Source: Escherichia phage ECO07P3. Taken from it: 64,000 nucleotides of DNA. The notes beneath the pieces are model-generated. The model ran no database searches, was not told the origin of the DNA, and worked only from the letters and a program-made list of their open reading frames with translations. The position numbers and the translations under genes are program-made. Location: the sequence record OP172786. One strand, given 5' to 3'. This document shows positions 41,842 to 42,863 of the stretch, in pieces; position 1 is the stretch's first letter, and each line of letters starts with the position of its first letter.

Positions 41842-41917
41842 TGGTCGAGGCAGTAGGGATCGAACCTACGACCTAGGACTTAGAAGGTCCTTGCTCTTCC
41901 TTCTGAGCTATGCCCCG
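41842..41917 (-). tRNA. tRNA-Arg (anticodon UCU)
   Basis: 76 nt incl. CCA; manual cloverleaf: acceptor CGGGGCA/UGCCUCG, D-stem GCUC/GAGC, anticodon loop CUUCUAA, T-arm GUAGG-UUCGAUC-CCUAC. Confidence 0.85.
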
Positions 41918-41921
41918 TAAT

Positions 41922-41997
41922 TGGGGTGACCGATGGGAGTCGAACCCATGACTACGAGAATCACAATCTCGAGTTCTACCAACTGAACTACGGCCAC
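41922..41997 (-). tRNA. tRNA-His (anticodon GUG)
   Basis: 76 nt incl. CCA; acceptor GUGGCCG/CGGUCAC, discriminator C73, anticodon loop UUGUGAU, T-arm AUGGG-UUCGACU-CCCAU; no encoded G-1. Confidence 0.75.
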
Positions 41998-42111
41998 ATT
42001 AATACCTACTCCAACAATCAAGATGTCTTCACACGAAATTAAGAGAAGAGTGATCAGTTCAACCCCGATAATCGCGTCAAGTAGATATTAATGTGACAAT
42101 TGTCACAAATT

Positions 42112-42186
42112 TGGCGGACGTGATAGGATTCGAACCTATAACCAATCGCTTAACAGGCGATCGCTCTGCCATTGAGCTACACATCC
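42112..42186 (-). tRNA. tRNA-Asn (anticodon GUU)
   Basis: 75 nt incl. CCA; acceptor GGAUGUG/CACGUCC, anticodon stem AUCGC/GCGAU with loop CUGUUAA, T-arm AUAGG-UUCGAAU-CCUAU. Confidence 0.8.
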
Positions 42187-42190
42187 AAAT

Positions 42191-42277
42191 TGGTGGGGAG
42201 TGATGGAGTCGAACCACCCGAGTCGCAATGACAATGGATTTACAGTCCACACCGCTACCTCTACGGGATAACTCCCC
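42191..42277 (-). tRNA. tRNA-Tyr (anticodon GUA), long variable arm
   Basis: 87 nt incl. CCA; acceptor GGGGAGU/ACUCCCC, anticodon stem GUGGA/UCCAU with loop CUGUAAA, long variable arm, T-arm GGUGG-UUCGACU-CCAUC. Confidence 0.7.
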
Positions 42278-42290
42278 TTAATTCTTAATT

Positions 42291-42365
42291 TGGTGGCCCT
42301 GGGTGGAATTGAACCACCATCTGGCGATTATGAGTCGCTTGCTTGAACCTTCCAGCTACAGGGCC
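42291..42365 (-). tRNA. tRNA with CAU anticodon (Ile-type as in T4, or Met)
   Basis: 75 nt incl. CCA; acceptor GGCCCUG/CAGGGCC, anticodon loop CUCAUAA, T-arm GGUGG-UUCAAUU-CCACC. Confidence 0.75.
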
Positions 42366-42366
42366 T

Positions 42367-42442
42367 TGGTGCTGATTGACGGAATCGAACCGCCGACATC
42401 CTCATTACAAGTGAGTTGCTCTACCTACTGAGCTAAATCAGC
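42367..42442 (-). tRNA. tRNA-Thr (anticodon UGU)
   Basis: 76 nt incl. CCA; acceptor GCUGAUU/AAUCAGC, anticodon loop CUUGUAA, T-arm GGCGG-UUCGAUU-CCGUC. Confidence 0.85.
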
Positions 42443-42447
42443 AAAAC

Positions 42448-42537
42448 TGGCGGAGGCGATAGGATTTGAACCTATGAGTCGCCGGAGCGACTGCCGGTTT
42501 TCAAGACCGGTGCATTAAACCACTCTGCCACGCCTCC
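42448..42537 (-). tRNA. tRNA-Ser (anticodon UGA), long variable arm
   Basis: 90 nt; sequence GGAGGCGUGGCAGAGUGGUUUAAUGCACCGGUCUUGAAAACCGG... with anticodon loop CUUGAAA and T-arm AUAGG-UUCAAAU-CCUAU. Confidence 0.85.
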
Positions 42538-42539
42538 AG

Positions 42540-42613
42540 TCTCCATACAAGGATTTGAACCTTGGGCCTCCTGATCCCAAATCAGGCGCTCTACCAAACT
42601 GAGCTACACGGAG
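42540..42613 (-). tRNA. tRNA-Pro (anticodon UGG), CCA not encoded
   Basis: Acceptor CUCCGUG/UAUGGAG, anticodon loop UUUGGGA, T-arm CAAGG-UUCAAAU-CCUUG; abuts tRNA-Ser as in the T4 Pro-Ser dimeric precursor. Confidence 0.85.
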
Positions 42614-42623
42614 TAAATTAAAT

Positions 42624-42697
42624 TGGAGCGGATAATGAGAATCGAACTCACATCATCAGATTGGAAGTCTGAGGTAATGCCATTATACGATATCCGC
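42624..42697 (-). tRNA. tRNA-Gly (anticodon UCC)
   Basis: 74 nt incl. CCA; acceptor GCGGAUA/UAUCCGC, anticodon loop CUUCCAA. Confidence 0.85.
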
Positions 42698-42702
42698 AAA
42701 TT

Positions 42703-42789
42703 TGGTGCGAGAAGTGGGACTCGAACCCACAAGGAAATCATTCCGCAGCATTTTAAGTGCTGTGCCTTTACCAATTTGACCATTCTCGC
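42703..42789 (-). tRNA. tRNA-Leu (anticodon UAA), long variable arm
   Basis: 87 nt incl. CCA; acceptor GCGAGAA/UUCUCGC, anticodon stem CAGCA/UGCUG with loop CUUAAAA, T-arm GUGGG-UUCGAGU-CCCAC. Confidence 0.85.
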
Positions 42790-42790
42790 G

Positions 42791-42863
42791 CTGGGAATAA
42801 AGGACTCGAACCTTTGCATCCTGGAATCAAAATCCAGTGCCTTACCAACTTGGCTAATTCCCA
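42791..42863 (-). tRNA. tRNA-Gln (anticodon UUG), CCA not encoded
   Basis: Acceptor UGGGAAU/AUUCCCA, anticodon loop UUUUGAU, T-arm AAAGG-UUCGAGU-CCUUU; 1 nt from tRNA-Leu as in the T4 Gln-Leu precursor. Confidence 0.85.

Follow-up and report, generated by a model that had tools for sequence, protein, structure and literature searches.

An eleven-gene tRNA cluster of Escherichia phage ECO07P3, read as the T-even tRNA operon in a segB-free, T2L-type form

What does a cluster of eleven transfer RNA (tRNA) genes say about a T4-like phage, when T4 itself is known to encode eight? The question is raised by positions 41842-42863 of a 64,000-nucleotide stretch of Escherichia phage ECO07P3 (sequence record OP172786; the whole stretch is called the window below). 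An earlier note, made from the letters of this DNA alone, had described the His, Asn and Tyr tRNA genes found here as lying beyond the eight of T4. The analysis reported here places the cluster differently: with a probability of about 0.9, it is the Tequatrovirus tRNA operon in its segB-free, T2L-type form. This allele of the T-even tRNA operon has been described before and is found in many sequenced phages, and its most unusual part is a tRNA-His gene that lacks an encoded G-1 and follows a structured leader.

The gene calls are secure. ARAGORN finds exactly 11 tRNA genes in the 64-kilobase (kb) window, all on the minus strand within 41842-42863, and the Rfam tRNA family RF00005 independently matches the same 11 above its gathering score, over a total range of 30.2-74.1 bits. 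Ten of them lie at 59-74 bits, and the eleventh, the class-II tRNA-Tyr, clears the gathering score, 29, with 30.2 bits. The transcript order is Gln(UUG)-Leu(UAA)-Gly(UCC)-Pro(UGG)-Ser(UGA)-Thr(UGU)-CAU-Tyr(GUA)-Asn(GUU)-His(GUG)-Arg(UCU), and both programs thus agree with the earlier note on all 11 genes, including the His, Asn and Tyr genes, which ARAGORN calls with the anticodons given there. Spacers between the genes measure 0-13 nucleotides, with the exception of 114 nucleotides between Asn and His (41998-42111). Nine of the 11 genes encode CCA, Gln and Pro being the two without it. The features of the cluster, in transcript order, are as follows (identities are given as identical over compared positions).

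42790-42863, minus strand: tRNA-Gln(UUG), called by ARAGORN; Rfam 67.4 bits; 65/74 to T4; no encoded CCA.
42703-42789, minus strand: tRNA-Leu(UAA), ARAGORN and Rfam; 87/87 to T4.
42624-42697, minus strand: tRNA-Gly(UCC), ARAGORN and Rfam; 73/74 to T4.
42539-42613, minus strand: tRNA-Pro(UGG), ARAGORN and Rfam; 73/75 to T4; no encoded CCA.
42448-42537, minus strand: tRNA-Ser(UGA), ARAGORN and Rfam; identical to T4 across the 87 nucleotides annotated there.
42367-42442, minus strand: tRNA-Thr(UGU), ARAGORN and Rfam; 75/76 to T4.
42291-42365, minus strand: tRNA with anticodon CAU, most likely tRNA-Ile2, ARAGORN and Rfam; 75/75 to the T2 'tRNA-Met', 47/75 to T4 tRNA-Ile.
42191-42277, minus strand: tRNA-Tyr(GUA), class II with a long variable arm, ARAGORN; Rfam 30.2 bits; 86/87 to T2, 85/87 to T6.
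42112-42186, minus strand: tRNA-Asn(GUU), ARAGORN; Rfam 74.1 bits; 75/75 to T2.
41998-42111, minus strand: structured 114-nucleotide leader of tRNA-His; folding z = -3.5, covariation, no Rfam match.
41922-41997, minus strand: tRNA-His(GUG) with U at -1, ARAGORN; Rfam 65.1 bits; aligned with E. coli hisR.
41842-41917, minus strand: tRNA-Arg(UCU), a T2L-type allele, ARAGORN and Rfam; 74/76 to T2, 49/76 to T4.

Comparison with T4 (NC_000866), whose cluster reads Gln-Leu-Gly-Pro-Ser-Thr-Ile-segB-Arg-rnaD-rnaC, shows where the two arrangements part. The location, between the trna.2/trna.3/trna.4 genes and rnaD/rnaC, is that expected of the T-even tRNA operon, and T4 has its cluster at the same genomic position with the same flanking genes. 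In BLAST alignments the window is collinear with T4 from upstream down to position 42346, inside the CAU tRNA (42346-43879 at 95% identity); homology returns at 41475, the start of rnaD, with the block 41131-41475 at 93%, and between 42346 and 41475 there is no BLAST match to T4. The genes from Gln to Thr are orthologous, with Leu, Gly, Pro, Ser and Thr identical at 73/75 to 87/87 positions. T4 differs in having no Tyr, Asn or His tRNA, in carrying segB and in lacking an open reading frame (ORF) between Arg and rnaD, and its CAU and Arg(UCU) tRNAs are different alleles, identical to those of the window at just 47/75 and 49/76 positions. Because of these two genes, the cluster is not a case of "T4's eight plus three"; the five-tRNA block CAU-Tyr-Asn-His-Arg evidently stands, on alignment, in place of the Ile-segB-Arg of T4. 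The count, the order, the anticodons, the missing segB and the missing G-1 of the earlier note therefore hold, whereas its picture of an enlarged T4 set gives way to one of different alleles.

The alleles that replace those of T4 are of T2 type. The T2L tRNA region (EMBL AJ880101; Brok-Volchanskaya et al. 2008) was described as containing Met(CAU), Tyr, Asn and an Arg isoacceptor together with two ORFs (PMC2330249), and T2L, RB1 and RB3 are all without segB (PMC2330249). The CAU, Tyr, Asn and Arg genes of the window are identical to those of the T2 genome AP018813 at 75/75, 86/87, 75/75 and 74/76 positions. Furthermore, the published T2L primers #5-7, #12, #13, #24 and #25 map to the window with 0-1 mismatches, the exception being primer #11, which spans a T2L-specific junction upstream of the CAU tRNA. 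Primers #22 and #23, which belong to the T2L trna.1 ORF, find no match in the window, and tRNA-Thr occupies that place, so the window represents a variant of the T2L layout and not an identical copy. T2 and T2L share with the window the absence of segB and the same downstream ORF ('trna.2') followed by rnaD and rnaC. T2 differs in having nine tRNAs, with the trna.1 ORF at the position of Thr, in lacking the leader and tRNA-His, so that Asn is directly followed by Arg, and in a tRNA-Gln with the T4-type anticodon arm. T6 (MH550421) has Gln, Leu, Gly, Thr, Met and Tyr followed by segB, with no Pro, Ser, Asn or His gene annotated in the stretch compared; its CAU allele is T4-like (50/77 identical to that of the window), while its tRNA-Tyr is near-identical (85/87).

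The absence of segB would follow from the same allele. The ORF list of the window contains no segB-like ORF, as the earlier note had already said, and BLAST aligns nothing in the window with the T4 segB segment. The preferred (major) SegB site, of 27 base pairs (bp), lies inside T2L tRNA-Asn, and SegB homing excludes the T2L tRNA region in T2L x T4 crosses (PMC2330249). The tRNA-Asn of the window is identical at 75/75 positions to that of T2, which holds the mapped 27-bp site, and carries the sequence of the preferred target, predicted to be cleavable by SegB. The window would be without segB because it carries the allele that SegB attacks.

Nor is this arrangement rare. Two Tequatrovirus phages, Shigella phage SH7 and Escherichia phage 4E10, match the window at 99.2% identity over 41700-43000, and the phages of this type differ from the window by point differences only. 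In total, 974 phage records match the region and 261 of them span at least 80% of 41700-43000. The record of 4E10 (OQ689735) annotates the identical 11 tRNAs in the same order, and the 11-gene layout is already known from the annotation of many deposited Tequatrovirus genomes. For the 24-kb stretch around the cluster, the best identity to any deposited genome is 97.8%, from which the window is an ordinary mosaic member of Tequatrovirus. These records dispose of the idea that the cluster is a new, phage-specific enlargement of the T4 tRNA set, unique to the OP172786 genome. Nothing speaks for it beyond a comparison with T4 alone; given the annotation of relatives, the mapping of the T2L primers and a description of T2L that dates from 2008 (PMC2330249), it can be counted as already refuted and has practically no probability left. 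Among close relatives, Escherichia phage vB_EcoM_11B_SA_NWU keeps all 11 tRNAs and has in addition a 206-amino-acid endonuclease gene between tRNA-His and tRNA-Arg (locus L101, 524-1144); a full tRNA set and a homing endonuclease are thus able to coexist. In another variation, phage sutha has lost tRNA-His and retained the leader.

As far as alignments can tell, the operon presents itself as a mosaic of three parts. One is the conserved 5' block Gln-Leu-Gly-Pro-Ser-Thr, common to T4; another, the T2L-type block Ile2(CAU)-Tyr-Asn ... Arg-ORF116 in place of Ile-segB-Arg of T4; the third, a module of leader plus tRNA-His, apparently inserted between Asn and Arg and shared by several other Tevenvirinae genera. 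The unit would run on through rnaD and rnaC to an intrinsic terminator. If the biology of T4 is a guide, transcription of the minus strand would yield a polycistronic precursor, which host RNase P and other RNases would cut into tRNAs, and the host CCA-adding enzyme would complete Gln and Pro, neither of which has an encoded CCA. The products would top up the host pool for codons heavily used by an AT-rich phage, that is, NNA codons together with AAU and UAU. At least tRNA-Tyr could also be a spare part when Septu/PtuAB or retron-Eco7 destroys the host tRNA-Tyr.

Downstream of tRNA-Arg, the proposed unit would comprise these further elements.

41475-41825, minus strand: ORF116 (116 amino acids), the T2L 'trna.2' ORF; phrog_3355 at E = 6e-54; T2L primers #24 and #25 map here.
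41360-41477, minus strand: homologue of rnaD (species 2 stable RNA), aligning with the annotated T4 rnaD over 115 nucleotides.
41214-41352, minus strand: homologue of rnaC (species 1 stable RNA), 136/139 identical to the annotated T4 rnaC.
41140-41163, minus strand: intrinsic-terminator-like hairpin with a 10-bp stem, 7 GC pairs and a TTTTT tail, from a consensus scan only.

ORF116 sits between tRNA-Arg and rnaD, and a Pfam search returned no match for it or for the flanking small ORFs. Since phrog_3355 also follows the tRNA array of a Klebsiella Jiaodavirus-like phage (locus L004, 2565-2933), it is a conserved companion of these tRNA arrays. Even for T4, no function is known for either rnaC or rnaD (PMC3014915). 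The hairpin at 41140-41163 is the probable end of the tRNA and stable-RNA transcription unit. Beyond it, between an e.8-like region and rnaC, about 520 bp (40610-41130) are without a T4 counterpart and contain a 97-amino-acid ORF at 40796-41089 (phrog_2280, function unknown).

Two genes of the array call for a closer look at their identity. The CAU tRNA has as its best match an annotated tRNA-Ile in 5424 of 5426 complete E. coli genomes (81.6% over its full length), and it resembles host genes of the ileX/ileY type more closely than those for Met or fMet. On this match it is likely to be a lysidine-dependent tRNA-Ile2 that reads AUA, and the "Met" of ARAGORN and GenBank is a default label for the CAU anticodon. 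The earlier note had left Ile and Met side by side; its anticodon stands and the E. coli match favours Ile2. The tRNA-Gln, for its part, is identical to that of T4 at 65/74 positions, with every difference in the anticodon arm. It exists in two forms that differ only in this 17-nucleotide arm (window 42821-42837), including loop positions 32 and 38: CUGGA-UUUUGAU-UCCAG in the window and in 4E10, and UAGCA-CUUUGAC-UGCUA in T4, T6 and sutha, with T2 carrying the latter with one base changed. The anticodon loop of the window form matches what we take to be that of E. coli tRNA-Gln.

The tRNA-His gene is the most unusual of the eleven. Its G+1 lies at 41997; the preceding base is U (41998, an 'a' on the plus strand) and the base at -2 is A. 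It ends in ...GGTCAC-C-CCA, so that C73 and CCA are encoded, and its anticodon loop UUGUGAU is identical to that of E. coli hisR. Measured against a bacterial-type tRNA-His, it thus has C73, the GUG anticodon and the 3' CCA, and it is without the encoded G-1 opposite C73: hisR aligns with one extra 5' G, as the earlier note had recognised. An alternative register, in which the first G would be G-1, is rejected: the D arm and acceptor align with hisR so as to place G+1 at 41997, and pairing in the shifted frame fails at U2-C72. The feature recurs throughout most of a lineage. All Straboviridae copies of tRNA-His examined have U at -1. In IMG/VR, the base at -1 is G in the 61 genes that have the host-type D stem (GCUC/GAGC) and T in the 21 with the phage-type stem (GUUC/GAAC); in a metagenome scan, phage-type tRNA-His has T at -1 in all but 3 of 28 distinct upstream contexts pooled from all sequences. 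A full-text literature search found no discussion of phage tRNA-His lacking G-1.

The spacer that precedes this gene is an RNA structure in its own right. It folds with z = -3.5 and is enclosed by a helix, P1, of 14 bp (42079-42092 paired with 41998-42011), whose 3' strand ends at U-1. Across ten distinct leaders, with 500 shuffles and slid helices as controls, P1 is paired in 100% of cells, with four pairs changed on both sides, and all four pairs of a second hairpin, P3 (42013-42027), covary around a conserved UCWUGAU loop. None of the 500 shuffles reaches the observed values, and the slid controls pair in 27-48% of cells only. P1 survives in eleven different versions of its two arms, which range from Tequatrovirus to Kanagawavirus and Gualtarvirus, and covariation supports P1 and P3 in at least seven Straboviridae genera. 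Gapless helices that end within 2 nucleotides of +1 have at least 12 bp in 14 of 16 tRNA-His genes, compared with 3-9 bp for most other tRNAs in the same arrays.

The leader, found in roughly 340 copies, travels with its gene. It is conserved together with tRNA-His in five other genera; spacer and tRNA are 82-91% identical in Karamvirus, Jiaodavirus and Gelderlandvirus, where the module follows tRNA-Gln and not tRNA-Asn, whereas in Moonvirus the hairpin interior is different but the closing helix and tRNA-His (97.7%) remain. In all four genera the module has the same tRNA-His lineage, U-1 and a closing helix of 14-15 bp that ends at -1. The hairpin interior occurs in several unrelated versions, and the Kanagawavirus leader is P1 alone.

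Several other explanations of the spacer were considered. It is not a known RNA: Rfam 15 gives no family match within 41998-42111 up to E = 5, and neither rnaC nor rnaD of T4 resembles it. Nor is it a degenerate tRNA, which neither ARAGORN nor RF00005 finds. An inverted repeat acting at the DNA level is disfavoured: many G.U pairs of P1 occur in the tRNA-sense strand only, with about 18 G.U cells and no mismatches in that sense, where the other strand would have A.C mismatches. An internal promoter is rejected, as the spacer has no minus-strand sigma-70 site and the count of the scan is at shuffle level. A link between the hairpin and the missing G-1 in particular is weakened twice over, by other phage tRNA-His lineages that have U-1 without a hairpin and by tRNA-Asp of Karamvirus and Jiaodavirus, which is preceded by a comparable, larger RNA with a stem of at least 19 bp. 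This RNA, of some 135-140 nucleotides, ends 0-2 nucleotides before tRNA-Asp (L003 at about 860-996, L004 at about 500-635, and also L008 and L016), and leader RNAs with long stems therefore recur in T4-like tRNA arrays. The upstream edge of the leader holds a perfect 16-nucleotide palindrome, TGTGACAATTGTCACA, at 42092-42107, which occurs once in the window and whose upstream half is found in Tequatrovirus only. The right half, GUCACA, shows complementarity to tRNA-His positions -1 to +5; the leaders of Karamvirus and Gelderlandvirus conserve it, and those of Jiaodavirus are without it. The palindrome fits the CRP pattern TGTGA-N6-TCACA, but one match or more turns up in 9 of 100 shuffles of the window, and a CRP site is not favoured. 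Minimum-free-energy folding of the leader together with tRNA-His, which is a prediction on thermodynamic grounds only, has the leader pairing into the 5' strand of the acceptor. Our best guess, offered with low confidence, is that such leaders may be processing or stability modules, freed as discrete hairpin RNAs by the RNase P cut at the tRNA 5' end and comparable to the species 1 and species 2 RNAs of T4.

Why should a phage keep these genes? Codon use in 67 ORFs of the window that do not overlap (16,221 codons, GC 35%) was compared with that of E. coli K-12, for which approximate values were used; all fold ratios rest on these. The codons of the T4-type tRNAs stand at 1.4-5.4 times the approximate E. 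coli level. Single codons include AGA at 5.4, AUA at 2.8, AAU at 2.6 and UAU at 2.1 times; Asn codons as a whole reach 1.59 and Tyr codons 1.56 times, 75-78% of them being NAU. These values would fit pure codon compensation, which the earlier note had implied and according to which Tyr, Asn and His were added only for the NAY needs of late genes. They make codon supply plausible for Asn (AAY) and Tyr (UAY), where demand is raised, and not for His (CAY), whose codons are under-represented. It also has to be set against this account that T2 without His and T4 without all three grow well on E. coli, and that an anti-defence role was demonstrated for the tRNA-Tyr of T6 (PMC13096335); we regard codon compensation by itself as doubtful. 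A tentative alternative, which we consider possible without favouring it, is that the block would replenish tRNAs destroyed by nucleases of the host or of competitors. Septu cleaves tRNA-Tyr (Chihara et al. 2026, PMC13096335), and the T6 tRNA-Tyr, which is 85/87 identical to that of the window, is expressed, as detected by northern blot, and when over-expressed or amplified rescues infection from Septu, in a manner that resembles T5 tRNA-Tyr against retron-Eco7; deletion of the T6 tRNA region sensitises the phage, and T4, without tRNA-Tyr, cannot escape (PMC13096335). Phage tRNAs are known more widely as counter-defence, with T5 tRNAs acting against retron-Eco7 and PARIS (PMC11555353, PMC11464382, PMC10264068). 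It has also been proposed that they oppose nucleases of the colicin E5 type, which cut Tyr, His, Asn and Asp tRNAs (PMC10264068). This GUN-anticodon (queuosine) family has four members, three of which (Tyr, Asn and His) are in the block, and the misfit of tRNA-His with codon demand would be explained. On the other side, Septu also cleaves the T6 tRNA-Tyr (PMC13096335), the fourth member, tRNA-Asp, is absent, and no nuclease specific for Asn or His has been linked to these phages. Moreover, the His anticodon loop is the same as that of the host, and tRNA-His therefore gives no sign of loop mutations that would evade a nuclease. The loops of tRNA-Asn and tRNA-Tyr presumably match those of E. coli as well.

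Some results weigh against the reading of the cluster as a T2L-type tRNA operon that supplies codons and spare tRNAs. His codons stand at just 0.74 times the approximate E. coli level, so that the argument from codon supply fails for tRNA-His; no defence system that targets tRNA-Asn or tRNA-His is tied to genes of the window; a scan for sigma-70 promoters found no more sites than in shuffled sequence; and the G-1 required by E. coli HisRS is missing from tRNA-His. The last point raises the possibility that this gene is carried along as a passenger without function, in effect a translational pseudogene. Without G-1, charging by E. coli HisRS drops more than 100-fold, according to the passages of PMC5499578 that cite Himeno 1989 and Connolly 2004; U-1 and A-2 offer no determinants for a non-canonical RNase P cut, and sutha dropped the gene yet kept the leader. 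Retention of the gene in at least seven genera is hard to reconcile with decay, however, with its compensatory changes in the T stem (CAUGG/CCAUC, CGCGG/CCGCC, CGACG/CGUCC), its C73, CCA and GUG anticodon invariant in nearly all copies, and some 200 Tequatrovirus records that hold the module at 95% identity or more. A mere passenger seems improbable. A bolder proposal, which we think unlikely but worth stating, is that tRNA-His belongs to a phage-specific lineage that never encodes G-1 and that is fused in Straboviridae to the leader. This unit would either point to a non-canonical way of obtaining a working tRNA-His in E. coli-type hosts or, once excised as a hairpin of 95-110 nucleotides, constitute a new family of stable phage small RNAs like rnaC and rnaD of T4. 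Possible routes include 5' processing controlled by the leader, a G-1 addition step of an unknown kind, and use that is independent of G-1.

Taken together, experimental follow-up may be rewarding for just two elements of the cluster, the tRNA-His without G-1 and the covarying leader in front of it: if the phage tRNA-His is charged, the present picture of tRNA-His identity or maturation during infection is incomplete. The T-even tRNA-Tyr, for its part, decides whether a phage gets past Septu, retron-Eco7 and similar defences that cleave tRNA. The main value of placing the cluster lies in correcting a bias that comes from T4 as the sole reference. It is T4 that is the unusual member, invaded by segB and with tRNAs lost, and the 11-gene cluster is a common version among its sequenced relatives.

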